In this document: positions 18,057 through 56,351 of the stretch, in pieces | How positions within the stretch are numbered: the stretch's first letter is position 1 | Layout: the number at the start of each line of letters is the position of its first letter | NCBI GenBank assembly: GCA_964016885.1 | Contig: OZ024742.1 | Span: 54,498,001 to 54,562,000, forward strand | Source of the DNA: Eledone cirrhosa | Lineage: Eukaryota | DNA length: 64,000 bases | Reading direction: 5' to 3' | Program-made: the position numbers and the translations under genes | The notes under the pieces: generated by a model | What the model was told of the DNA's origin: nothing | What the model saw: only the letters and a program-made list of their open reading frames with translations | The model's database searches: none

Positions 18057-18112
18057 TGTACATATATTTATATATATGTATATATATATATATATTTATA
18101 TATGTATATATA

Positions 18113-19767
18113 TTTCGTTTCTGAATTTGTTTAGCAAGATTCTTTATCTGAAATCGTGTGTTGAAACCGATATTGTTATACTTTGGGAGGGTCATGTTGC
18201 CAATAAGAAACACACGCACCAGTTGCTTTCACTTCAATTTAATTTAATATATATTTATAAATTTACAAATTTATAAATTTCTGGTTGGTTGGTTGGTTCC
18301 ACAACCAGATAGTTGTTTATATATATATAGTCATAGTTCTTTCGTCACACACTCTGTGACCTCTTCAGTGACTGGGGATTTCTTTCTTCGTTTCTGTGCC
18401 TTTCCTTTCTTCTATCCTACGCCATTTTGTTTGTGTGTGGGTTGCGTGCTCAGTTTGCGCATGCGCCACATCCGGGTGTCTGTGTGTGTTTGTGTTCATT
18501 TTTCTATTTTTCTATTTATATTTGTTTGTTTATTTATTTATTGTTGGTTGGTTGTTTGTTCTATGTGTGTGTGTGTTTTCATTTTGTCTTGTGTGTGTTT
18601 TCATTTTGTGTGTGTTTTCAATTGTAAGTTGTTTGTTCTATGTGTGTGTGTGTTTTCATTTTGTCCTTAATTGTAAGTTGTGATGTTGCTGTTCCACTCA
18701 TATTTTCTATTTAATTTTGGTTTTAATTCTTTTATGCTTACTGCCTCTGTAATTTGCCTAAACATTGCGTCTTTCTTGTGTGTGGATTCTATTTTTATTT
18801 CTATGCTCTCTAATTTACCCCTGTGTTCTATCTTAGCATGTTGGTAGAGCACAGATGATTCTTTACTATCTTGGAGGTCTCGCCAGTGTTCATTTATTCG
18901 TTCCCCTATACTACGAGCTGTCTCACCTATGTACACTATATTTTTGTTTCTACATTGTCCTTCAGTACATCTTATGCTATATACTACATTTCTAGTTTTA
19001 CAGTTAATATGGGGGCTTATTTTACAGGTTATACATTTCTTATCTATACATGAGGGTCTTTGGAACGGGTATGTCTTGCTAATAAGTGTTTTTACGGAGG
19101 TACCAGGTCTTTCTACTATCTTAATATTGAGATTATGTTTCTTTAGGGCCCTTCTAAATTTGTAGGCTAGTTCGCCTCTAGGGGTTGTATTGATGAACAT
19201 TACACTCTGGTATTTATTGCTATCATACCATGAGTTTATTCTATTGGCCTTGTTCTTAGTTCTTTCTATTCTATTCCAAAATTTGCTCCTATACAAGGGG
19301 CAGGTCCCATTTATGTCATTATTTACCATTTTTTCCCATTTGGTTCTGGCTCCTTTATACACTCTGATTCTATCTCTCTGATTGTAGCCAGAGAACTGCA
19401 TACGGTGGATGAAGTGTTGTATGTGTCTCTCTAGTTCTTCGGGGTTGCACATGCGGGACACATTTCTCATCACCCGTACCAAATCCGCAATCAGTATGTT
19501 GATTTTGGTATGGTCCGAAATGGCCGAGTTTCGGTGGATCAGATGTTTGGAAGTCATGGGTTTGGCATAATGGGAATGGAGGATTTGTTTTTGGTTGTTA
19601 ATAGTATCTAACCAGAGCTCTGTGTCTAGTACAGGTAATCGATGGTTGGGGTGTCTACTTGGGTAGTCTATAGTAACTCTAATGCTCTGGTGGATGGAGT
19701 TTGCTATTTGCTGGATGCTTTCCATTGTGTTTTTCTCTGGTTCCTGACTGTTCTTTAGTGGGGGTGT
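18113..19767 (-). mobile_element. Inverted 5'-truncated copy (RT thumb, GIY-YIG, pLTR) of the adjacent Nematis-like PLE
   Basis: Reverse complement of ~22735-24329 plus tail; ORF 18667-19833 matches the C-terminus from TPPLKN onward; HHR 18329-18373. Confidence 0.95.
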
Positions 19768-19855
19768 GGCGCAAACTGAGCACGCAACCCACACACAAAC
19801 AAAATGGCGTAGGATAGAAGAAAGGAAAGGCACAGAAACGAAGAAAGAAATCCCC

Positions 19856-19900
19856 AGTCACTGAAGAGGTCACAGAGTGTGTGACGAAAGAACTATGACT
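19856..19900 (+). ncRNA. HHR in the Nematis-like pLTR (copies 24128-24172 plus; 18329-18373, 56573-56617 and 60655-60699 minus)
   Basis: AGTCA-CTGAAGA-G-GTCAC agagtgt GTGAC-GAAA-G aa C-TA-TGACT. Confidence 0.85.
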
Positions 19901-20009
19901 ATATATATATAAACAACTATCTGGTTGTGGAACCAACCAACCAACCAGAAATTTATAAATTTGTAAATTTATAAATATATATTAAATTAAATTGAAGTGA
20001 AAGCAACTG

Positions 20010-23000
20010 GTGCGTGTGTTTCTTATTGGCAACATGACCCTCCCAAAGTATAACAATATCGGTTTCAACACACGATTTCAGATAAAGAATCTTGCTAAAC
20101 AAATTCAGAAACGAAATATCGTAAGCCTTAGCCAGGCTAACAAGATACTGAAAACCACCATGTTCTGTTGTCTACGAAAAACCATAACATCTCGACAACT
20201 ACACTTCATAAAACTGTGCACCACTTCTAGAATCTACACCAACACCATCAATACCGACGTTAGAAGATTACAACTCACCAAAAAACAAGCAGATAGGTTA
20301 AAACGAACTTTAATTCTAAACATAAAAAAGAAGATCTATAGAGAATTAAGTCATCAAGAAAAACTAAAGCGTAATCTAATAGATGAAATATCTAAAATCA
20401 CCACACCAGCAGAAAAACTAACATTTATAAGCCTTATACGACCCGAAGAACAGTACATTACTCAAGAATGTAATAAGCACTTTAACAGAAAATTAAAGTG
20501 GCTTAAACAGGCAAAGCTAAATCGGGATACTATAGAGTATACCAATAGATATCCCGACAAAATTGACGGTATCAACATGGCCGACACCTCATTATCTGAA
20601 GAGTTCAACAATGAAAATACCAACATTTATGGAAACACGGAAATAGATAATAATGAAATGTCTGTGTTACGTCTGCCACCCAAATTTGCGACATTCAAGA
20701 AGGTAAATATGATTAGTTGTCTGTCAGAAATAGAAAAATCATTTACGAAACTACGCTGGAGCATCAAAAACAAAAACAAAAGCAACAATATACGCACACA
20801 CATATACAACACACATCCCAACAACAACAGACACACAGACACAAACAACAATAACAACAACAATAGCAACATACCCAGATACAACACCAACAATAGCAAC
20901 ATACCCAGATACAACAGACACGCAGACACAAACAACAATAACAACACACACGGAGACAACAATAACAACAACACACACATCAACAACAACAGCAACATAC
21001 CCAGATACAACAACAACAGACACGCAAACACAAACAACAATAACAACACACACAACAACGATAACACACACACACACGGAGACAACAACACACATCAACA
21101 ACAACACACATCAACAACAACAACACACACACATTCAATGCCTCTCACCACCACTACAATCTTAACAAACACACAGACACAGAAAACAAGTAATGACAGT
21201 AGCACAGAAATCAGAGAAATAAGAGAAAGTAATAGGATTAAAAGGAGAAGGGAGACTAAGGACAAAGAGAATAACCAAGACGAACACACAGACACACAAA
21301 ATAGGGTAGATAACAACATTGAGCCAGTGGAAAGAGACAGGAGTAATTATGAGAGACATAGAAACAACCATGAAGCTGAGGCTGCTGCTGTTGGTGGAAA
21401 TAGAAACAACACAACTAACAATAGCACTAGTACACATAAAGCAGCAGCCTGGAACTCTCCGTTTTATAACCCCTCCGATAAATCATTCGACCTACGACGA
21501 GTCCACGCCACGACTTTGCCATTTAACAAACGCACGCAGTTGCCGTCGCAGGTCGATGAACAAACAGAAGCACAATTTAGTATAGCTAAATCCGAACTTA
21601 GAAATATTATAGAACAGTATAGCAAGAAGCATAATAGAATAGAGGCCCAGCAACTGGGAGAAGAATCTGCAAATGGCTTGCGTAAGCTCATGCAGCGCTC
21701 ACGTAATGGAGAGATAGCATGCTTTCCAACAGACAAGTCTGGCAGAATGTCGGTTGACAGCCTGCCAAACTACATCCAGGCAATGCAACCCCACATCACT
21801 AACACAAGAGAGGTAACACCACAGGAGCATGAGGATAGAGAAAAAACCCTCAATGCCCATATGGTGATGTGGACAAATATAATGCAGCCCAACAAAAGGA
21901 CTGCCAACAACTTCCAGGCCTGGAACAATGACGTGCCGGCGTTGTATGGGCTTCGAAAAGACCATAAAACGGGCTGGGACCCTGTCGCGGGACCACCAAC
22001 ACGGCCAGTCTGTGGGGCTAACATTGCTAGTAACTACAGACTGTCCTACTTCCTCTCCCTGATCATACGCCCCATCATTGAGATGTCCCCAGATGTGTGT
22101 GACAGCACGGAGGACCTCCTCAGCAGAATCGGCGCGGGTAACCGATCTGGGGACCTAACAAACTGCATAATAGGCAGTATGGATGTTGTGTCCCTGTATC
22201 CATCTATTGACGTGGATTTTGCTGTGGAGAAATGCGTCGAAATGATCAGCGAGAGCAAGGTTGAGTTCCGTGGGATTGATACCAGTGAGCTGGGACTTCT
22301 ACTTAAGCTTACCCATAGTAATAGTTACCTAGACACTTATGACCTTAGCAACCTGTGCCCTACAAGACCAGCAAGAGGCAGACCACCTACCATTACCTCA
22401 ATGGCCAAGAAAACCCACACATATAGATGGAACGGGTGGACCAGAGCCATACGGACACCCGAAAACCACGATGAACTGAAGAAAATGATTGCACATGCGG
22501 TAGGGGCCAGCATAAAATTAACCCTTAAGGAACATATGTTCAAATTTAATGGTAAAACATATGCCCAAGAGGAAGGAGCAGCCATTGGTGTTAGCATTGC
22601 AGGCGACATAGCTAACTTGTTCATGGTATGGTGGGACAGTAGACTTAAACAAAAACTTAATGAACAATTAGAAGACAGCTTAACCCTGATAATGTACTCC
22701 CGCTACGTAGATGATATAAACATCGTAGTTAAGACACCCCCACTAAAGAACAGTCAGGAACCAGAGAAAAACACAATGGAAAGCATCCAGCAAATAGCAA
22801 ACTCCATCCACCAGAGCATTAGAGTTACTATAGACTACCCAAGTAGACACCCCAACCATCGATTACCTGTACTAGACACAGAGCTCTGGTTAGATACTAT
22901 TAACAACCAAAAACAAATCCTCCATTCCCATTATGCCAAACCCATGACTTCCAAACATCTGATCCACCGAAACTCGGCCATTTCGGACCATACCAAAATC

Positions 23001-23834
23001 AACATACTGATTGCGGATTTGGTACGGGTGATGAGAAATGTGTCCCGCATGTGCAACCCCGAAGAACTAGAGAGACACATACAACACTTCATCCACCGTA
23101 TGCAGTTCTCTGGCTACAATCAGAGAGATAGAATCAGAGTGTATAAAGGAGCCAGAACCAAATGGGAAAAAATGGTAAATAATGACATAAATGGGACCTG
23201 CCCCTTGTATAGGAGCAAATTTTGGAATAGAATAGAAAGAACTAAGAACAAGGCCAATAGAATAAACTCATGGTATGATAGCAATAAATACCAGAGTGTA
23301 ATGTTCATCAATACAACCCCTAGAGGCGAACTAGCCTACAAATTTAGAAGGGCCCTAAAGAAACATAATCTCAATATTAAGATAGTAGAAAGACCTGGTA
23401 CCTCCGTAAAAACACTTATTAGCAAGACATACCCGTTCCAAAGACCCTCATGTATAGATAAGAAATGTATAACCTGTAAAATAAGCCCCCATATTAACTG
23501 TAAAACTAGAAATGTAGTATATAGCATAAGATGTACTGAAGGACAATGTAGAAACAAAAATATAGTGTACATAGGTGAGACAGCTCGTAGTATAGGGGAA
23601 CGAATAAATGAACACTGGCGAGACCTCCAAGATAGTAAAGAATCATCTGTGCTCTACCAACATGCTAAGATAGAACACAGGGGTAAATTAGAGAGCATAG
23701 AAATAAAAATAGAATCCACACACAAGAAAGACGCAATGTTTAGGCAAATTACAGAGGCAGTAAGCATAAAAGAATTAAAACCAAAATTAAATAGAAAATA
23801 TGAGTGGAACAGCAACATCACAACTTACAATTAA
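20010..23834 (+). CDS. Intact PLE polyprotein (RT + GIY-YIG), first ATG at 20034
   Basis: TDKSG, LYGLRKDHK, TRPV, MDVVSLYP, GAAIG, RYVDD, LPVLD, CIDKKCITC, VVYSIRC...YIGET...ER..EH; clade assignment is from recalled motifs. Confidence 0.96.
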   Translation: MRVFLIGNMTLPKYNNIGFNTRFQIKNLAKQIQKRNIVSLSQANKILKTTMFCCLRKTITSRQLHFIKLCTTSRIYTNTINTDVRRLQLTKKQADRLKRTLILNIKKKIYRELSHQEKLKRNLIDEISKITTPAEKLTFISLIRPEEQYITQECNKHFNRKLKWLKQAKLNRDTIEYTNRYPDKIDGINMADTSLSEEFNNENTNIYGNTEIDNNEMSVLRLPPKFATFKKVNMISCLSEIEKSFTKLRWSIKNKNKSNNIRTHIYNTHPNNNRHTDTNNNNNNNSNIPRYNTNNSNIPRYNRHADTNNNNNTHGDNNNNNTHINNNSNIPRYNNNRHANTNNNNNTHNNDNTHTHGDNNTHQQQHTSTTTTHTHSMPLTTTTILTNTQTQKTSNDSSTEIREIRESNRIKRRRETKDKENNQDEHTDTQNRVDNNIEPVERDRSNYERHRNNHEAEAAAVGGNRNNTTNNSTSTHKAAAWNSPFYNPSDKSFDLRRVHATTLPFNKRTQLPSQVDEQTEAQFSIAKSELRNIIEQYSKKHNRIEAQQLGEESANGLRKLMQRSRNGEIACFPTDKSGRMSVDSLPNYIQAMQPHITNTREVTPQEHEDREKTLNAHMVMWTNIMQPNKRTANNFQAWNNDVPALYGLRKDHKTGWDPVAGPPTRPVCGANIASNYRLSYFLSLIIRPIIEMSPDVCDSTEDLLSRIGAGNRSGDLTNCIIGSMDVVSLYPSIDVDFAVEKCVEMISESKVEFRGIDTSELGLLLKLTHSNSYLDTYDLSNLCPTRPARGRPPTITSMAKKTHTYRWNGWTRAIRTPENHDELKKMIAHAVGASIKLTLKEHMFKFNGKTYAQEEGAAIGVSIAGDIANLFMVWWDSRLKQKLNEQLEDSLTLIMYSRYVDDINIVVKTPPLKNSQEPEKNTMESIQQIANSIHQSIRVTIDYPSRHPNHRLPVLDTELWLDTINNQKQILHSHYAKPMTSKHLIHRNSAISDHTKINILIADLVRVMRNVSRMCNPEELERHIQHFIHRMQFSGYNQRDRIRVYKGARTKWEKMVNNDINGTCPLYRSKFWNRIERTKNKANRINSWYDSNKYQSVMFINTTPRGELAYKFRRALKKHNLNIKIVERPGTSVKTLISKTYPFQRPSCIDKKCITCKISPHINCKTRNVVYSIRCTEGQCRNKNIVYIGETARSIGERINEHWRDLQDSKESSVLYQHAKIEHRGKLESIEIKIESTHKKDAMFRQITEAVSIKELKPKLNRKYEWNSNITTYN

Positions 23835-24341
23835 GGACAAAATGAAAACACACACACACATAGAACAAACAACTTACAATTGAAAACACACACAAAATGA
23901 AAACACACACAAGACAAAATGAAAACACACACACACATAGAACAAACAACCAACCAACAATAAATAAATAAACAAACAAATATAAATAGAAAAATAGAAA
24001 AATGAACACAAACACACACAGACACCCGGATGTGGCGCATGCGCAAACTGAGCACGCAACCCACACACAAACAAAATGGCGTAGGATAGAAGAAAGGAAA
24101 GGCACAGAAACGAAGAAAGAAATCCCCAGTCACTGAAGAGGTCACAGAGTGTGTGACGAAAGAACTATGACTATATATATATAAACAACTATCTGGTTGT
24201 GGAACCAACCAACCAACCAGAAATTTATAAATTTGTAAATTTATAAATATATATTAAATTAAATTGAAGTGAAAGCAACTGGTGCGTGTGTTTCTTATTG
24301 GCAACATGACCCTCCCAAAGTATAACAATATGTATATATAT

Positions 24342-24651: not shown

Positions 24652-24978
<327 letters not shown>

Positions 24979-25537: not shown

Positions 25538-28500
25538 TCAGGATTTGGGCACCATGGCCCATTCGAGAAGAGAATTACTGTTTGCGGAGACATATCCGTG
25601 TGTGGGTGGTTTGTCCGGGATTACTTGGAGGAATTTGTCCAAAGACTTCTTGAATTTTGTGTGGTCAGTTTCTGTTTAGACGTGTCCTGGTGTGATGTTG
25701 AAGAGAGCAGGGCCGATTGAGGTGAAATAATTGTGCCGTATTGTTGTTATGAGTTGCGATTTAGATTTTTGAATGGGACGGATTGCACGGGGCCCAAGCC
25801 TTGGGTGTATCTTGAAGGCGATGCCAACATCATTTGGGCAGTGATGATGGAACATTTTCCACATCATGCAGATAATATAACGCTCACGGCGACGTTGGAG
25901 TGAGTAAAGTTTCAGGTTTTCTAATCGACCCCAGTAGTCAAAGTCTGACATGCCATCTATATTTTTCGTGATTGCCCTTTGAGGAGCTTCAAGTTTCATG
26001 ATACTTTGTTTCGTGTGGGGAGACCACAGTGGACAACAGTATTCAAGGTGTGGTCGGGCAAAAGTAGAGAAGAGAAGGATAATGGTGCGGGAATCTCTCG
26101 ACTGGAAGGTTCTGAGGATCCAGGAACACATTCTGCGGGCCATGTCAACTTTGCTGCTTATATGAGTGGTCCAGCTAATGTTGCTGTCCACGGTTACTCC
26201 CAAGTCTCTGATGTTGTTAGATGCCACGAGAGTTTCCCCGGAGGGAAGGGAGTACGGGAGTTTCAGAGCATCCTCTTTTCCAAAGTGGATTAGTTCGAAT
26301 TTGTCTTCGTTCAGTAACATGTTGTTCTTTTCTGCCCATTGGGTAACAGCCAGTAGGTCTGACTGAAGGCTTATCCGGTCATCCACGCCATTGATGACCT
26401 TTTGGAGCTTGGAATCATCAGCGAAAATTTTAATGTTGCTGTGTTTGATGATGTCAGTGATGTCATTAATATAGATGATGAAGAGAAGTGGGCCCAACAC
26501 AGTGCCTTGTGGGACCCCACTACTGACTTTGGCTGGGCTTGATTTGACTCCCTCAACTACAACATGTTGGGTTCTGTTTGACAGGAAGCTCTTGATCCAC
26601 TGCAGCAGCTTTCCAGTGACACCAATATTGGACAGCTTTCTCAGTAGAATGTTATGATCAACCCTGTCAAAGGCCTTGCTGAAATCAAGGTAGATAACAT
26701 CAGTGTTGGAACCCTCTCCCAAGGCTCTCAAAATGTCATCAAAGTGATGCAGTAGCTGCGTCAGGCAATCCCTTCCATTACGGAATCCATGCTGGTTGGA
26801 GTTCAGCATATTGTTACTCTCAAGGAAGTGGGTCATTCGCGATCTCACCACTCTCTCAAATACCTTAATGATATGAGAGGTGAGTGAGATTGGACGGTAA
26901 TTCACGGCAAGGGATTTGTTTCCCTTTTTGAAAATTGGGACAACAGACTGGGATAGAAGGTTTTCAGGCACATATCCAGCATCCAGTGAGTTCCGCCACA
27001 GATTGGCAAGAGGAGATGCAAGTTGGTGTTGACACGCCTTCAAGACACAAGCAGGGAACCTATCGGGACCTACTGCTCAATTATGCTTGATTTCTTTTAT
27101 TGCCGCCAAGACATCAGGGGCGCCAAACGTTATGTCCGATAAGGTGTAATGGGGAGTAACATCGCCGATACAGCCCAGATCGGCCATATCAGGATTGCTG
27201 AAAACAGAGCAGTATTGTTTCTGCAGTATCTCACCCATGGTTTTAGCATTGTCTTGAAGAGTGCCATTTTCATCAATTAGAGGGCCAACAGTAGAGCCAG
27301 TGATTTTGTGTTTTTTTGCAAATGAAAAGAACACTTTGGGATTGAGTTTGATCTTCTCAATGGCCCAGGCCTCTTCAGCTCTTCTCTGATTGTTGATGAG
27401 GGACATTATGTTGTTTTGGAGGTTATGCTTTTTAATCTCTAGTGATGAAATGGCAGTCAAGTTGATGTGTTGCTGCTGACAGTATTTCAGCTTGTTGATT
27501 TTTTTTGTTCGTTCTCTTAATTTTTCTGATGAGCGTTTTTCTATTTCTAGGGATTCTGCTCTTAGATTTGTTTATAGTTCTTAATGGTGTGTGTTTAGCA
27601 CATATGTTTGTAACAGTGTCCACAAATGTCTGCCAGGACTTTTTGATGTTAGTGGGTGTATGAGTGTGCGTGAAGGACCAGTCGACATGTGCAAGATCAT
27701 GACTGATCGCTTCCCAGTTTGCATTGTGGAAATCCATAGCGTCAAACGGATGGACAGGAGAGATGACATTGGGTTTGTATATTGGACGGTGGAATCTCAG
27801 ATCACAGAGAACCATGTCATGATCAGAGAGTAGAGTTTTCTCCACTGCAATATTGTGGATATTGTCAGTGTGATTGCTGAAAATTAAGTCTAGGACGTTT
27901 TTGTGGCACCTCGTTGGTTCGAGCACCAGTTGGGATAGGAAGAAATCATCCATGAAGTCAAGAAGCGATTCCACAGCTTCCCTGTCAGAGGTTGAGGCAG
28001 AAGAACCTGGTGGCAGGCTGTTTGTGGACCAGTCAACTCCGGGGAGGTTGAAGTCCCCCATCATTAAGATGTTGTCAGGGTGACACTCTTGGATGAAACA
28101 CTTTATGCTGCTGAGGCATTCCTTGAAGCATGGTACAGGCGTTTGGGGTGGCCTATAGAGCCCAACTACTAATAGGTTGTTGGTTTGACTGAATACAGTG
28201 ACTGCTTCACAGTATCCATTAGAGAATATGTTCATAGCCTCTGTTGAGAAAGAATTATGGACATAAATGGCAGTTCCGCCCTTTCTTCTGCCAGCGCGAT
28301 CAGCACGGATGGCTTTGAAATTTTTCACTTTCACCTCGGCTTCCAAGTGGAGGTTACTGAGATGGGTTTCAGTGAGGACGAAGAAAGGGATGTGGTTTGG
28401 ATGGACATCAATCCAGTCCTCCAGGAATTTGATCTTCCATTTTTGAGTATTGGTGGAAGGGCTGATGCCTTGGGCGTTAAGCAAAAATGTAGAGGCGAGA

Positions 28501-28658
28501 GTGGATGGTTTTAATTGTTTTGGTGTGTTGTTAATTTGTTTGTTTGTTAATGGCAGCAATGGGAGTTTGTGCAGTGGGGAGATAGTGGAGGGTGGTGCTG
28601 GGTGATAGCTCGAATGTTTTTTTCCAGTTCTTTTGCCAGATTCATTATGGCTAAAAAA
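25538..28658 (-). pseudogene. LINE ORF2 (AP endonuclease + RT); frameshift near 27490 and stops at 27077 and 25676
   Basis: LNAQG, LTETHL, YRPP, GDFN, LDLIF, SDH; [36 protein letters not shown]. Confidence 0.93.
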
Positions 28659-29310
28659 GAGGAAGAAGTTTCCTGTTTAGAAGACTGTTGGTGACTGTGG
28701 TAGTGGTTATTTTTATGTAGGTTATGGTTTTTGTTTTTGCTTTTATTTTTAATTTTATTTTCATTTGTCCGACGGGTCCCCGGGAGATGGGTAAAGGGAC
28801 AATCCCGGTCTAAACACAATCTGTCTCGCAGGGAAAAGCGGCAGATTTGTGGATTCCTTGTTTGAGTTATTGGTGGTTGTGTTGGTGTTAAATTAGAGTA
28901 TGTATTATGGTGGTGGCTGTTTGTGGGGATAGATCGTTTTGTCCTAGGTAAATGGGTGAATTTGCAGCCACTATCCGTACATATTCTATAGCGTAGAGAG
29001 TAGCGGCAAATGATGGGGTTTCGAGTGGGTGGGTATGTGGGTGTGTGTGTTGTGAGAGGTGTAGATGATGGTTTGGGTAGGATTTGACGAATTTGTGGAC
29101 TGTGGGAGGGAGAGTTCTTGTTTTGGCATTAGAAGGTAAATTCCTTGACATAGCAGTAGACAAAAATGTTGTAGTAGTAGTAGTAGTAGTAGGCAGAGAT
29201 GTTGGCAGTGGTGATGATTGGACTGCTGGGCCAGAGAAAGGATATGGCGTTTCATGCTGTGAGACAGAGGCTACTGGGGGGTCAATAGTTTCATTTAGTA
29301 GATCGGCCAT
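28547..29310 (-). pseudogene. LINE ORF1 with two CCCH zinc fingers; one frameshift, probably near the (CA)n at ~29040
   Basis: Manual translation gives CRYSLRYRICTDSGCKFTH and CRFSLRDRLCLDRDCPFTH (C-x8-C-x4-C-x3-H). Confidence 0.7.
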
Positions 29311-31747: not shown

Positions 31748-33118
31748 TATAAGATCAAAAGATGGTTAAAGGAGTTCCATATATTTTATTATGCGCATTT
31801 CAAAAACAAACATCATCAAGCAATAATATTTGTGTTTTCATCAGATAAAACAGGAGAACATGATATGAAGGTTAAAAAACACTTGTTGATAGTGCAGTTT
31901 TAAATCAACATATGAAAAGTGGTTTTAGATTGATGTGTGATATTGGGAAAAATATTTTATTTAGAGAGGGGGGGGAAAGGATGAGAAGGGAAGGAGATGA
32001 GAGGGAGAGATGGGTGATAGAGAGAAAGAGATAGTTTTTATAACTGAGAGGAGATATATTTTTTATATAGAGGGGTTGAAAACCGTTGGAAGATACTGTA
32101 TAAATTAAAAATTTTGAAAATTAACGAAGGGGGGATATGTGCGAGGAAAAAATATTTTATTTAGGGAGGGGGGGTGGAAAGGAAGAAAAAAAAGGGGGAG
32201 GAGATGAGAGTGAAGGTGGAGAGGGAGAGATGGGTGATAGAGAGAAAGAGATAGTTTTTATAACTGAGAAAAAGATATATTGTTTTAATATAGAGAGGTT
32301 GGGAACCGTTGGAAGATAATGTATAAATTAAAGGAATTTAAAAATTAACGAAGGGAAATTATGTATGAAGATAGAGAGAAAAAAATAATAATTGTGGGTG
32401 AATATTCTAACGTCAAAAGAAGAAATGTATGTATTGTGGCAATTTCAAAATTAGCAAAGAGAGGAATGTTAAGGTTTATGTGTAGAAGGATTTGAGAAAA
32501 ATAATGTGAAGTTAAAGTTTGTATATTGAATTCATATGTATTAATAATGAGTTCGTTTTTTTTTTTTTGTTTTTTTTTTGTTTTCATCCTTCCCCCCCCC
32601 CCCCTCCCTAAATAAAATATTTTTTCATCGCACATATCCCCCCTTCGTTAATTTTCAAAATTTTAAATTTATACAGTATCTTCCAACGGTTTTCAACCCC
32701 TCTATATAAAAAATATATCTCCTCTCAGTTATTAAAACTATCTCTTTCTCTCTATCACCCATCTCTCCCTCTCATCTCCTTGCCTTCTCATCCTTTCCCC
32801 CCCCCCTCTCTAAATAAAATATTTTTCCCAATATCACACATCAATCTAAAACCACTTTTCATATGTTGATTTAAAACTGCACTATCAACGAGTGTTTTTT
32901 AGCCTTCATATCATGTTCTCCTGTTTTATCTGATGAAAACACAAATATTATTGCTTGATGATGTTTGTTTTTGAAATGCGCATAATAAAATATATGGAAC
33001 TCCTTTAACCATCTTTTTGATCTTATATTATGCATACTCCAGTCCCACAAACTGTAGAGTGCTTCTTATCCGATATCTGCATTGCTTTATTGTACTACAA
33101 TAAAACTCACCTCCTACA
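31748..33118. mobile_element. Head-to-head pair of Hydra-like 1 3' UTR/pLTR fragments around a T-rich spacer
   Basis: 31748-32555 (minus) and ~32580-33118 (plus) match 54830-55572; HHRs at 31784-31850 and 32924-32990. Confidence 0.88.
32924..32990 (+). ncRNA. HHR of the Hydra-like 1 pLTR (copy 55473-55539 has U16.1>C)
   Basis: TTTTAT-CTGATGA-long AT-rich stem II-GAAA-TGCGCA-TA-ATAAAA. Confidence 0.8.
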
Positions 33119-33148
33119 TATATGTATGTATATATATATTTATATATG

Positions 33149-33188
<40 letters not shown>

Positions 33189-33190
33189 TA

Positions 33191-34131
33191 TTGGAATAAA
33201 TGCTCTGAAATAGCGATATATATGTGAATATAGACATAGAATATTCGAAAATATTCTGTATGTTTATAATAAACATTTTGAAGACCTAATCGCTATATAA
33301 TAGAATACGTCACGTATTACAATTAGATTCTCGATAAAAGCAAGGGAAGTAATCTACGCGTTTCATTCTTATTAGAAATCTTCAGGATTACATATCCAGT
33401 GCTTTTATCGAGAATGACACAGCTAGAGACTTATAGAATACTTAGCTGTGTACAGGAACTGGTTTGAAAGAGCGGTTGCCGGTCCGGCAGAAATTAGAAA
33501 TTGGAATAAATGCTCTGAAATAGCGATATATATGTGAATATAGACATAGAATATTCGAAAATATTCTGTATGTTTATAATAAACAGTTCCTGTACACAGC
33601 TAAGTATTCTATAAGTCTCTAGCTGTGTCATTCTCGATAAAAGCACTGGATATGTAATCCTGAAGATTTCTAATAAGAATGAAAAGCGTAGATTACTTCC
33701 CTTGCTTTTATCGAGAATCTAATTGTAATACGTGACGTATTCTATTATATAGCGATTAGGTCTTCAAAATGTTTATTATAAACATACAGAATATTTTCGA
33801 ATATTCTATGTCTATATTCACATATATATCGCTATTTCAGAGCATTTATTCCAATTTCTAATTTCTGCCGGACCGGCAACCGCTCTTTCAAACCAGTTCC
33901 TGTACACAGCTAAGTATTCTATAAGTCTCTAGCTGTGTCATTCTCGATAAAAGCACTGGATATGTAATCCTGAAGATTTCTAATAAGAATGAAACGCGTA
34001 GATTACTTCCCTTGCTTTTATCGAGAATCTAATTGTAATACGTGACGTATTCTATTATATAGCGATTAGGTCTTCAAAATGTTTATTATAAACATACAGA
34101 ATATTTTCTAATATTCTATGTCTATATTCAC
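33191..34131. mobile_element. Retrozyme-like family E: 310-bp monomer, tandem plus inverted array
   Basis: Period 310 (33191/33501; 33654/33964); orientation switches at ~33585. Confidence 0.9.
33964..34006 (+). ncRNA. HHR of family E (copies 33654-33696 plus, 33349-33391 minus)
   Basis: GTAATC-CTGAAGA-TTTCT aata AGAAT-GAAA-CGCG-TA-GATTAC. Confidence 0.88.
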
Positions 34132-34200
<69 letters not shown>

Positions 34201-34205
34201 TATAA

Positions 34206-34329
<124 letters not shown>

Positions 34330-34414
34330 GTATATATATATTAATAAGAGGAATTCCAACTTTGTCTGAATTACTCGTTTTATTTACAATCCTTTAAAAC
34401 ATATATAATGGTAT

Positions 34415-35160
34415 TTCGTTTCTGAATTTGTTTAGCAAGATTCTTTATCTGAAATCGTGTGTAGAAACCGATATTGTTATACTTTGGGAGGGTCATGTTG
34501 CCAATAAGAAACACACGCACCAGTTGCTTTCACTTCAATTTAATTTATTATACATCCATAAATTTACAAATTTATAAATTTCTGGTTGGCTGGTTGGCTC
34601 CACAACCAGACAGCTGTTTATATATATATAGCCACAGTTCCCTCGTCACACACTCTGCGACCTCCCCAGCGACTGGGGATTTCTCTCTCCGTTCCCGCGC
34701 CCCTCCTCTCCTCTATCCCACGCCATCCTGTTTGTGTGTGGGTTGCGCGCTCAGTCCGCGCATGCGCTACATCCGGGCGACTGTGTGCGCCTGTGTTCAT
34801 CCCTCTATAAAAAAAAAAAAAAAAAAATAGAGGGATGAACACAGGCGCACACAGACGCCCGGATGTGGCGCATGCGCGGACTGAGCGCGCAACCCACACA
34901 CAAACAGGATGGCGTGGGATAGAGGAGAGGAGGGGCGCGGGAACGGAGAGAGAAATCCGCAGTCGCTGGGGAGGTCGCAGAGTGTGTGACGAGGGAACTG
35001 TGGCTATATATATATAAACAGCTGTCTGGTTGTGGAGCCAACCAGCCAACCAGAAATTTATAAATTTGTAAATTTATGGATGTATAATAAATTAAATTGA
35101 AGTGAAAGCAACTGGTGCGTGTGTTTATTATTGGCAACATGACCCTCCCAAAGTATAACA
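34415..35160. mobile_element. Head-to-head pair of A>G-hypermutated Nematis-like pLTRs with an A19 spacer and a 14-bp target-site duplication
   Basis: ATATATAATGGTAT at 34401-34414 and 35161-35174; arms match 23995-24329 apart from A>G changes. Confidence 0.93.
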
Positions 35161-35338
35161 ATATATAATGGTATTATAATGAAATAGTATGATAGAATAT
35201 TAAATTCTAAGTGTTAATGGAACAAGTACTTTTATGCTTTCGCAATCTTCAGGTTCATGATATGTGGCGACAGTCGAGTTTGCAATTTTCAACTGTAATG
35301 AGATGATTTTCAACTGTAAATATATGTATATATATATG

Positions 35339-38069: not shown

Positions 38070-39119
38070 TTATATATAGGGTTTAAAGTTTTGGAACGAG
38101 TGTCGGAAGCGGTGGTGGCAATTTGCGAACACTTCTGATTTTTTATTAAGGAGATTATGTTTAGAGAAGATGATAGTATGGGTCTCTAGTAGACAGATGT
38201 TACAAAATTTATCAGGTGGTTTGTACGATGTTGCACTACCTACCACTTCCCACTTAAGTGTATATATTTTATTTTTAGTTTTTAGATAGTGTATGTAGCT
38301 AGATAGTGAAGTGGAGTTGGCTAGACTGTGTTTTTTGAAAGAGTGGAGGTGCGAATTGTATCTAGTTTTGAAGCAGTTAGAAGTGGAGCCTATGTAGGTT
38401 TCAGAAGAGCTGTTAGTTGTGACTGTACATGAGTATATGATATCCTTGGTTAAGCATCTTTTATCTAAAGGGCAGGTTCTACTTGATCTACAGTTACAAT
38501 TACTCTGGGTGCTAGTCTGCCGGTTACTATGCTGTGTAGAAGTTTGGATGTTAGCTATAGGGTTATGGTTATGCGGGTTGTGGTACGCAGCGTTAATGTT
38601 TACACTAGTGCTATTACTATTATTTCCATTGATATTACGGTTATTTGTTATAATGTTACTTTGACTGTTATTTTGAATGTTATTTTGAAGGTTTATCGAC
38701 CGTTGTGATTTAGTTTGTTGGAAGTAAGAATTAATTTTTCTTTTATTTGTACTAGCTATGTGGTATGCTAAGTTAGGCGTAGTAGAGTATGAGATCTTAA
38801 TAGTGTTTTTGTTTAAAAGGCCGTGGTACCTGTGGCCGGATGGGAAGTGTTTATCTAGTAGTGAGAAGAAAGCCCTAGGAAGGTTGGTAGAGACGTTTAA
38901 ATTGAAAGGAGGGTTGAAAAATGTATTATTTCTTCTTCTATTTCTGTTTTACATGTCTGGTGATTTGTTTCCTTTAATGTTCCTAAGGTCATTTCTGTGG
39001 TGCGGGTTACTCTTGTTGTTACAATCCCTATTAGTGTGTGTGCAGTTGCTATTCCTATTATTAAATTTTCCCATGGACATGTTGTGTGAAATGATGTTGT
39101 AGCTATGTGTTTTTGTAGG
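38070..39119 (-). pseudogene. PLE linker + GIY-YIG C-terminus (missed by the ORF track; stop at 38949)
   Basis: Manual translation: FNPPF...NKNTIKISYSTTPNL...NCNCRSSRTCPLDKRCL..DIIYSCTV...TYIGSTSNCFKTRYNSH...CNICLLE...LLNKKSE..CHH. Confidence 0.88.
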
Positions 39120-45269
<6,150 letters not shown>

Positions 45270-46837: not shown

Positions 46838-48335
46838 CGAAAAAACGAAGATAATTAGTCATATGTGGAGCGTGGAGAACAAAACCACGTAAATGGTATA
46901 GCAGAAATCGTAGACTAAAATTCTAACTAGGAGACCAAATGAATCTCCGCTACAGAGTTAAGAACAAAGTAAATAAATACAATACAGAAGTAATAGGAAC
47001 AAATAAATACATACACGCAAACAGATACGTACATACACAAGCATACGCAAAACCTTACCATGGGTATACAAAACCACGCACATATAAATATGTGTGTGTG
47101 TGTGTATGCTTGTGTACAAATAAATAAATAATTATATAAACGTATATAAGTAAATAAATACGTATATAACAAGCGCACACGAATACCTACATATAAATAC
47201 ACGAATGTTCGGAGACGTAACTCAACTAAAACAAGAAGTACACATATACACACGCCCACCATACGTACGAACCTGCACACTCACGCGGACGCAAAACTCC
47301 CGTATACACATAGCCAAACCCTAAATACCAGAATATGTAAAAATTATACGCTATAACAGTCAAATATACGTACGAGAAGGTATACATACCTTCACAAAAC
47401 ATACGGGTAATATATACTTACCTATGCAAATAGGTAAAGGAATAAACAAAACATATACTTAGCTCCCACATCAAGACGTAAAATATCCACGTATAGATCG
47501 TGCTATCCGTTAGGGTATAACGTGGGGCTGTAATACAGGAAGGTTTTGTGCAATTTATGTTTACAAGCCGAAATTGCCTCAGATTTTTTGTTTAAGATGT
47601 GGTCTGTAGCGTAGAATATTTCCAGGGCTTCAGCGGCGTAGAAGTCACATGGTTTTTTATTTCCGTTATACGATCTAGCCCTAACTAGGATCTCCCTGTG
47701 TAACTTATATTGGGTGTGGTTGTCTTTTAGACTCCAGATATAAGCTGAAAGTGACGTCATATTCCTTCTTAGAGGGTAACGAAAAGAATGGGTATGCATG
47801 TAAAGACGCTGCTTGAAACTATTGGCGGTTAACCCTATGTAGGCCCTACGGGACGTGGGTGTTACAACCTTACATTTGTAGACAATGTTACTAGAGAGGC
47901 ATATCCCGGATAGGGGGCAATCAGCCCGATTCCTACAATTACAGTTAGTACTAACTACAGGGTTGCACGTGTTCCTACGGCTAGGTAGTTTAGCTAAATT
48001 TGAAGCTGTGATGTTATGTGCAAGGTTCGGAGTCGTAGAGTAAGAAATTTTAATAGTATTTCTATTAAAAAATTTACCATATTTATGTGTAGGGGGAAAA
48101 TGCTTCGTAATAAGGGAAAGAAAGATCTTAGCTAATGGTGTGGCCACCTCCATATTATATGGTGGGTTAAACCAACAAATGCGACGGGATCTATTTCTTC
48201 TAGGTCTATTTTAGTACACTGTATATGCTACCTTATCGACAAATCCACTTCGAGCAAGAGCTTCATTGTAATAAGTGGAATGGTCGTTGAAAATGCGCTC
48301 GTTGGTGGAAATACGGGAAAGCCTCAACGAAAATA
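46833..48335 (-). mobile_element. Truncated Hydra-like PLE family 3 (thumb, linker, GIY-YIG, 3' UTR)
   Basis: RLSRISTNERIF..YYNEALARSGF, WFNPPY, NCNCRNRADCPLSGIC, IVYKCKV..AYIGLT; coding part 47503-48335. Confidence 0.87.
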
Positions 48336-50228: not shown

Positions 50229-51659
50229 ACTTTGAATAACTTTGAAATGTTTTGGCCAGTATTGGCCCAGGCCATGTCTAACTTAATAGCACCACCTGGC
50301 GAAGTCTTTCAATTCAGGATTTGGGCACCATGGCCCACTCGAGAAGAGAATTACTGTTTGCGGAGACATATCCGGGTGTGGGTGGTTTGTCCGGGATTAC
50401 TTGGAGGAATTTGTCCAAAGACTTCTTGAATTTTGTGTGGTCAGTTTCTGTTTTGACGTGTCCTGGTGTGATGTTGAAGAGAGCAGGGCCGATTGAGGTG
50501 AAATAATTGTGCCGTATTGTTGTTACGAGTTGCAATTTAGATTTTTGAATGGGAAGGATAGCACGGGGCCCAAGCCTTGGGTGTATCTTGAAGGCGATGC
50601 CAACATCATTTGGGCAGTGATGATGGAACATTTTCCACATCATGCAGATAATATAACGCTCACGGCGACGTTGGAGTGAGTAAAGTTTCAGGTTTTCTAG
50701 TCGACCCCAGTAGTCAAGGTCTGACATGCCATCTATATTTTTCGTGATTGCCCTTTGAGGAGCTTCAAGTTTCATGATACTTTGTTTCGTGTGGGGAGAC
50801 CACAGTGGACAACAGTATTCAAGGTGTGGTCGGGCAAAAGTAGAGAAGAGAAGGATAATGGTGTGGGAATCTCTCGACTGGAAGGTTCTGAGGATCCAGG
50901 AACACATTCTGCGGGCCATGTCAACTTTGCTGCTTATATGAGTGGTCCAGCTTATGTTGCTGTCCACGGTTACTCCCAAGTCTCTGATGTTGTTAGATGC
51001 CACGAGAGTTTCCCCGGAGGGAAGGGAGTACGGGAGTTTCAGAGCATCCTCTTTTCCAAAGTGGATCAGTTCGAATTTGTCTTCGTTCAGTAACATGTTG
51101 TTCTTTTCCGCCCATTGGGTAACAGCCAGTAGGTCTGACTGAAGGCTTATCCGGTCATCCACGCCATTGATGACCTTTTGGAGCTTGGAATCATCAGCGA
51201 AAATTTTAATGTTGCTGTGTTTGATGATGTCAGTGATGTCATTAATATAGATGATGAAGAGAAGTGGGCCCAACACAGTGCCTTGTGGGACCCCACTACT
51301 GACTTTGGCTGGGCTGGATTTGACTCCTTCAACTACAACATGTTGGGTTCTATTTGACAGGAAGCTCTTGATCCACTGCAGCAGCTTTCCAGTGACCCCA
51401 ATATTGGACAGCTTTCTCAGTAGAATGTTATGATCAACCCTGTCAAAGGCCTTGCTGAAATCAAGGTAGATAACATCAGTGTTGGAACCTTCTCCCAAGG
51501 CTCTCAAAATGTCATCAAAGTGATGCAGTAGCTGCGTCAGGCAATCCCTTCCATTACGGAATCCATGCTGGTTGGAGTTCAGCATATTGTTACTCTCAAG
51601 GAAGTGGGTCATTCGCGATCTCACCACTCTCTCAAATACCTTAATGATATGAGAGGTGA
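50228..51659 (-). mobile_element. 5'-truncated copy of the CR1/L2-group LINE (open RT frame to 50314)
   Basis: Near-identical to 25446-26883; lacks the 25676 stop; same tail. Confidence 0.93.
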
Positions 51660-51685
51660 TATGTATATATATGTATATATATATA

Positions 51686-51805
<120 letters not shown>

Positions 51806-51822
51806 TGTATATATATAAATGT

Positions 51823-51934
<112 letters not shown>

Positions 51935-51935
51935 T

Positions 51936-51967
<32 letters not shown>

Positions 51968-52056
51968 CATATATATGTATGTATATATATATATGTATGT
52001 ATATATATATATATATATGTATGTATATATATATATATGTATATATATGTATGTAT

Positions 52057-55572
<3,516 letters not shown>

Positions 55573-56201: not shown

Positions 56202-56349
<148 letters not shown>

Positions 56350-56351
56350 CT

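Follow-up and report, generated by a model that had tools for sequence, protein, structure and literature searches.

The 64,000-nucleotide window of the Eledone cirrhosa genome analysed here (assembly GCA_964016885.1, contig OZ024742.1, positions 54,498,001 to 54,562,000 of the forward strand) contains at 34412-35164 a 753-bp palindromic insertion, composed of a left arm, a run of 19 A (A19) and a right arm, which is a Penelope-like retrotransposon copy truncated at its 5' end. Very probably the RNA of this element was hyper-edited by ADAR and then reverse-transcribed into germline DNA, and the initial annotation of this locus as an edited, retrotransposed Penelope-like RNA is thus supported. 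We favour this reading because the A>G tracts are strand-specific, have an ADAR-type sequence context and are confined to base-paired parts, because the insertion is flanked by a target-site duplication (TSD), and because such tracts recur at about 20 loci.

The A>G tract at 34412-35164

Both arms carry the same 37 A>G changes when compared with the pseudo-long terminal repeat (pLTR) of the element, for which the window holds three mutually identical reference copies (18171-18511 on the minus strand, 19769-20058 and 23990-24330). Within the 251-nt tract of the right arm (34832-35082) 37 of 110 A are changed, together with none of 42 T, at most one of 51 C and at most one of 48 G, and in the left arm none of the 26 A of the tail (34412-34470) is edited. 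Relative to L133, the nearest natural copy among the retrieved loci, each arm has the 37 A>G and two arm-specific changes, with no other change in common, and the arms differ from each other at 4 sites. These counts agree with the description first given, of about 37 A>G against few other changes, and since all of the A>G are common to the two arms (37/37) the edits are older than the inverted duplication, as had also been claimed. The background is given by 25 distinct near-identical copies (96% or more identity, fewer than 8 A>G), which have at most 2 A>G each and in which A>G makes up 12 of 73 changes; the probability of 37 or more A>G among 39 changes is about 2e-20, assuming an A>G share of 25%.

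The flanks of the insertion align to 24755-24832 and 24819-24978, that is, to one uninterrupted copy of a host repeat (24755-24978), with an overlap of 14 bp. This empty site corroborates the 14-bp TSD reported for the locus. The A19 run had been taken as a further hallmark of retro-insertion, which is not supported. It sits at the central 5' junction, where the parent element has A5; this speaks against a poly(A) tail and makes stutter of the polymerase, or the addition of untemplated bases, the more likely origin.

The edited allele is present in DNA reads. Assembled contigs carry it over 34868-35074 in run X1 (one other letter) and over 34868-34992 in run X2 (none), both runs being from one sample, which is possibly the source of the assembly. 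In run X5, from another sample and study, 5-8 raw reads with 2-3 read starts cover 34880-34969, differ only at 34936 and 34959, and have A at none of the 15 edited sites within that interval; run X4 has no coverage of 34898-34951.

Recurrence, neighbour preference and pairing

DNA searches with edited queries, in which 40 candidates were scored and 30 loci were retrieved per search, gave 11 edited loci with 12 to 157 A>G each. A degenerate pattern for the ribozyme core in the pLTR has 8,841 matches in the 3.0-Gb genome, and 16 of these, at 12 loci (6 already known), have both of two positions forced to G. With two further patterns, which led to 4 loci, 21 loci were flagged; 19 were pooled, and C13:17.07M (about 8 A>G) and C1:309.9M (4-5) were dropped as weak. 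The overlap of the forced-G matches with the loci already known suggests that about 22 loci are edited across the ribozyme core. Edit sets are private to each locus, the two other loci compared sharing 16 and 13 of the 37 changes at 34412-35164, and the tracts reach up to about 1.1 kb into the open reading frame (ORF). Some of the edited loci are very young, such as C22, where 107 edits are shared and the 1014-nt arms show zero differences. Protection of the 3' 80-140 nt from editing was considered but ruled out, as three matches are edited there.

In the 19 pooled tracts, 809 of 888 changes are A>G, and the 79 others include A>T (11), A>C (8), T>C (7) and G>A (22). The changes are thus clustered A>G on one RNA strand, as in ADAR hyper-editing, and do not follow the G>A pattern of APOBEC-type enzymes (22 G>A against 809 A>G, with the A-rich form the commoner). 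The fraction of A edited depends on the 5' base, with T 190/422 (0.45), A 405/934 (0.43), C 127/508 (0.25) and G 87/433 (0.20; G against the rest, p=5e-14), and on the 3' base, with G 201/426 (0.47), C 171/511 (0.34), A 306/930 (0.33) and T 131/430 (0.31; p=2e-8), where both p-values overstate independence, as the pooled counts reuse the same positions across copies and the loci were found through edited queries or forced-G patterns. This preference is close to the order of human ADAR1, which the available text of PMC3113232 gives as 5' U>A>C>G and 3' G>C~A>U. The two longest tracts, which are mostly ORF and therefore little affected by how the loci were found, have each alone 10/62 and 10/93 edited A after G, against 52/87 and 44/101 after T. 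The depletion of 5'-G that had been put forward as a check is significant in the pooled data but not at this locus taken alone (4/21 against 33/89 edited, p=0.13).

At three loci, C15:40.04M, C3:222.2M and C19:14.49M (class II), both palindrome arms have A>G on the same physical strand, and the edited sites differ between the two arms; at C15 the only differences between the arms and natural copies are 19 A>G and 13 T>C. At these loci 90 of 291 editable sites are changed where the hairpin is paired and 8 of 271 where it is unpaired (p=2e-20), and over 20 tail-bearing arms 1 of 520 A is changed in the unpaired tail. The confinement of edits to the paired parts at the three loci shows that the substrate was double-stranded. 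The most plausible reading of the class II loci is that each is a copy of an entire edited hairpin transcript; as these three copies show, a palindromic insertion is the source of its own ADAR substrate, and the reverse transcriptase (RT) can copy through the edited duplex. They fit the dependence of editing on intramolecular structure, and not on antisense pairing, found in the part of PMC13445718 that was available. The hairpin visible at 34412-35164 is not itself the ADAR substrate, and for its edits we infer a partner strand. Separately, the rule that antisense-strand edits never occur was considered and ruled out, by one match to the mirror pattern and two more, all of them hairpin copies.

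In the mechanism that we propose, most insertions of the family being head-to-head palindromes, read-through transcripts would fold into long hairpins, and ADAR would convert A of the element RNA to inosine while it is base-paired. Reverse transcription would begin in the sense arm, at its tail region, which is neither paired nor edited, and would read inosine as G, so that the edits would enter germline DNA. Transcription through the whole hairpin would leave A>G on one strand of both arms, as in class II, and copying of the sense arm only, with the inverted arm newly made at insertion, would leave one shared edit set (class I, as at this locus). As for the enzyme, ADAR deaminase domains are encoded at four loci of the host genome (C6:13.64M, C1:146.45M, C25:17.35M and C1:320.7M), of which only C6 was identified, as ADAR2-like: its exon keeps the HAE and Cys motifs and is 94% identical to ADAR2 of Octopus vulgaris. 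The host is therefore octopod-like, in agreement with the coleoid origin assumed when the locus was first described.

An alternative, although very improbable, is that the RT, or an imbalance of the nucleotide pool, misincorporated deoxycytidine (dC) opposite A in bursts and without ADAR. Such bursts would also yield sense-strand A>G common to both arms, and A within runs are often changed (AAA, 132/302), but the edits are concentrated where the RNA can pair (90/291 against 8/271), are nearly absent from the tail (1/520) and obey the ADAR order of 5' and 3' neighbours, A>T and A>C are rare, and at C1:2.08M an edited patch of 150 nt lies in an insertion of which about 4 kb is unedited. Diversity-generating retroelements leave an A-to-N pattern, unlike the tracts here. 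A deaminase acting on DNA after insertion, at a cruciform or R-loop, could explain the class II loci taken alone, where the A>G lie on a single DNA strand of a palindrome. It is very improbable for the whole set, since the class I arms are changed at the same sites on opposite strands (37/37 here, 107/107 at C22), therefore the change precedes arm formation, and since three pLTRs at C3:328.6M share an edit set. No better placed, and largely refuted, is the explanation of the G-rich form as an ancestral state, an artefact of assembly or sequencing, or a separate subfamily, the last being the objection raised in the initial annotation itself: mismatch clusters can come from palindromes and systematic sequencing errors (available text of PMC2873906), but only the two arms match the edited query at 99-100%, with the next match at 89%, the core is A-rich in 95 of the first 100 of the 8,841 matches listed, and the arms differ at 4 sites, are TSD-flanked and have their allele in independent reads.

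Several observations weigh against ADAR editing followed by reverse transcription. The evidence is genomic DNA, and editing of these transcripts was not observed in this species. No donor was identified for the insertion at 34412-35164, and the C15 donor palindrome has one match in the assembly, which is C15 itself. No edit is present in the final 82 nt of the right arm, though a donor hairpin would normally be paired there, and the context test on the three antisense arms was not significant (1/9 for 5'-G, p=0.27). To these are added, from the results above, the 5'-G test at this locus alone, the two weak loci, the dependence among the pooled counts and the way the loci were found, the single sample behind X1 and X2, the few read starts in X5 and the coverage gap in X4.

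The parent element and the making of its inverted arm

The features of the insertion and of its unedited relatives in the window are collected in Table 1.

Table 1. Coordinates in the window of the edited insertion, its target site and the unedited family members
Feature	Position	Strand	Remarks
Left TSD, ATATATAATGGTAT	34401..34414	+	last 3 nt are also the left arm end
Left arm, pLTR and 59-nt tail	34412..34808	-	37 element-sense A>G, 34553 to 34803
Edited minimal hammerhead motif, left arm	34630..34674	-	
A19 central junction	34809..34827	+	parent has A5 run at same position
Right arm, tail-less pLTR	34828..35164	+	same 37 A>G, 34832-35082
Edited minimal hammerhead motif, right arm	34961..35005	+	
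Right TSD, ATATATAATGGTAT	35161..35174	+	first 4 nt are also the right arm end
Empty-site counterpart of TSD, other copy of host repeat	24819..24832	+	
Unedited family member	18110..24331		inverted tail-bearing arm 18110-19767, partial pLTR from 19769, ORF, 3' pLTR
1277-aa open frame (stop to stop)	20001..23834	+	RT and C-terminal GIY-YIG
Unedited minimal type I hammerhead motif	24128..24172	+	cut predicted after 24167
Second unedited family member, other subtype	56341..60902	-	ORF 56822-60547

Sub-regions of the ORF at 20001-23834 match RVT_1 (E 9e-5, 22.7 bits, below the Pfam cut-off of 29.6) and, at the C-terminus, GIY-YIG (E 6e-5, above the Pfam cut-off); a Pfam scan of the whole ORFs at E 1e-3 gave no match. 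The single ORF with RT and C-terminal GIY-YIG, the partial tandem of pLTRs, the inverted 5' arm and the tail on one end are those of an endonuclease-containing (EN+) Penelope-like element. Ahead of the GIY-YIG lies a CX4CxxC linker, a feature of Neptune and Nematis in the accessible text of PMC8557442. Among 38 head-to-head pairs at the retrieved loci, the tail is on exactly one arm in 31, on both in none and on neither in 7 (strict match). An Asn/His/Thr-rich low-complexity insert in the ORF (20600-21250) recalls the N-rich inserts of Adineta Penelope ORFs described in the available part of PMC3846280.

The motif at 24128-24172 consists of a 5-bp stem I, CUGAAGA, an unpaired G, a 6-bp stem II, GAAA and a minimal stem III, and both fold and motif fit the minimal type I architecture of hammerhead ribozymes (HHRs) in the available text of PMC4209133, with self-cleavage being predicted only. 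No hammerhead was reported by Rfam on the unedited or the edited pLTR at E up to 10, nor, for the whole window, among the best 150 of 360 matches. In the edited motif (34961-35005) CTGAAGA has become CTGGGGA, GAAA has become GAGG and the A of the cleavage site is also G, with eight A>G in all (34965, 34969, 34970, 34977, 34993, 34994, 35000 and 35003), which confirms the alteration of the core noted at the outset. The edited residues presumably include A6, A14, A15.1 and the cleavage base. Hammerhead cores require A6, A14, A15.1 and a base other than G at position 17. Judged from these residues, the ribozyme activity of the edited copy has probably been lost.

The private edit sets can be read as barcodes of the insertion process. 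The arms of class I share their element-sense edits at six loci (37/37, 107/107, 31, 31, 115 and 51), therefore the inverted arm was made at insertion from one edited molecule. T>C tracts occur only as hairpin partners, which indicates that the template is the sense RNA; in the available text of PMC3846280 the choice between a sense and an antisense template is left open, and self-priming on an antisense template is proposed. We give an even chance to another round of priming on that RNA, begun at the opposite end of the target, as the source of the second arm; this accommodates all the class I loci. The anole Penelope-like enzyme matches this model: according to the accessible part of PMC11167929 it cleaves and extends the two strands of the target, and it has two start sites, on either side of the tail. 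Fold-back self-priming on the new cDNA is possible but rather less probable. The perfect central palindrome at C22, the containment of the tail-less arm in the tail-bearing one here, at C22 and at C1:42.8M, the self-priming proposed in PMC3846280 and the arm-discordant A/G sites without clear enrichment (0/4, 0/0, 3/12, 3/6 and 3/3) would all suit it, but at C4:202.8M (tail arm of 626 nt, tail-less arm of 1348 nt), C4:126.5M and C3:328.6M each arm has sequence that the other lacks, so that an extra central deletion would be needed, and the two-strand extension and two start sites of the anole enzyme speak against it as well.

The three pLTRs at C3:328.6M (inverted, middle and terminal) bear a common signature, which occurs genome-wide only at those three places, and the middle and end pLTRs have 15 shared edits and no discordant A/G. 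This suggests that the pLTR of one RNA was read more than once, although a lost edited master or later conversion may also account for it. A circular RNA has been proposed for related retrozymes, in the available text of bioRxiv 10.64898/2026.07.22.740005. The terminal pLTR at C1:2.08M, which is unedited and of another type, weighs against the generality of shared edits in tandem pLTRs. A wider model, which we hold to be evenly poised between right and wrong, is that ADAR output routinely enters the octopod germline through the Penelope-like RT, in a few per thousand copies and still ongoing, and that one sense RNA is read from both target ends, giving the palindrome, and is read round repeatedly, by a circular template or by re-entry, giving the tandem pLTRs.

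Some of the edited loci have further features. The full-length insertion at C1:2.083-2.090M has a 5' part of one subtype and a 3' end and terminal pLTR of another, which suggests either that copying passed from one RNA to a second or that recombination followed. At C3:328.62M, where the element keeps a 1191-aa open frame, the G-run of the core after editing has 12-14 G in the middle and terminal pLTRs and 6 G in the inverted arm. Two tail-less edited arms face each other 10 kb apart at C2:324.750M and C2:324.760M, with 31 shared edits and exactly three A>G differences, and nothing else, over 815 columns.

Elsewhere in the window, RT/GIY-YIG-like frames belonging to further families of Penelope-like elements were recognized by motifs at 8466-10592, 38070-38948, 42115-45035, 47503-48210 and 52250-54496, and two similar frames with LINE-like endonuclease and RT at 25676-28676 and 50314-52245 (minus). 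Other long inverted repeats, which are potential hairpin sources, occupy 61005-63973 (94% self-complementary) and 33115-34228 (88%).

Function, significance and known systems

When the locus was first described, ADAR was suggested to act as an anti-ribozyme or anti-Penelope defence, or as a heritable mutator. The second holds for the element's own copies only, with no effect on a host gene shown. A dedicated defence, in which editing disables the ribozyme and stops the elements, appears unlikely, and as a targeted anti-ribozyme defence it is not supported, because all these edited RNAs still inserted, the tracts are not centred on the ribozyme and extend as far as about 1.1 kb into the ORF, three edited loci (C6, C4:202.8M and C3:222M) retain an unaltered core, and HHR mutants insert normally in vitro (available text of PMC11167929). 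The core residues are changed at most loci, as a defence would predict, but many of the loci were selected by their core edits. Edited copies are also rare, with both forced G in 16 of 8,841 core matches, and the C3:328.6M copy keeps its 1191-aa frame yet its signature occurs nowhere else; this rarity may, however, reflect rare read-through templates and not restriction. Human ADAR1 does restrict L1, apparently without editing (PMC12925331, in its available text). The loss of the ribozyme is thus likely to be a by-product. The analysis covers surviving insertions only, which give no basis for judging a general restriction by ADAR.

In the edited copies the genome preserves traces of RNA editing that took place in germline cells or the early embryo, within the group of animals most noted for such editing, and they reveal how RNA edits can become heritable changes in DNA. 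Their private edit sets are natural barcodes that bear on the way in which Penelope-like elements form their inverted and tandem repeats and on the strand used as template, and such sets can be sought wherever a genome has young copies. In a literature search where subscription papers were mostly outside the coverage, no publication was met that describes retrotransposon copies edited by ADAR in the genome of a germline.

Several known systems are close to this one. A>G hypermutation recorded through reverse transcription is known for avian retroviruses, as given in the available part of PMC12925331. As here, exogenous retroviruses have clustered A>G in the repeat regions of the element, recorded in DNA by RT; these arise in infected cells, whereas here the element is an endogenous, non-viral retrotransposon, edited at about 20 chromosomal loci, including whole hairpins. 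The hyper-edited repeat RNAs of PMC5625713, in whose available text the hyper-editing signal is strongest in octopus and more than 40,000 edited sites are given for Penelope RNA of lizard, share the chemistry and the substrate, but at the RNA level only, whereas here the edits are in genomic DNA. Retrotransposons with long terminal repeats edited by APOBEC (PMC2873906 and PMC4866542, in part) likewise have strand-biased deaminase tracts in genomic copies, with G>A from cytosine deamination of cDNA, in contrast to the A>G found here, which depends on RNA pairing. The present copies are their A>G counterpart, and the APOBEC screens, which in the accessible text of the same two papers selected for G>A and against A>G, would have discarded them. 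The EN+ Penelope-like elements described in PMC3846280, PMC8557442, PMC4209133 and PMC11167929 share with the present family the RT with C-terminal GIY-YIG, the partial tandems, the head-to-head inverted arm, the tail on one arm, the minimal hammerhead and the AT-rich targets; in the available parts of these four papers no edited genomic copies were met, whereas the family studied here has them.
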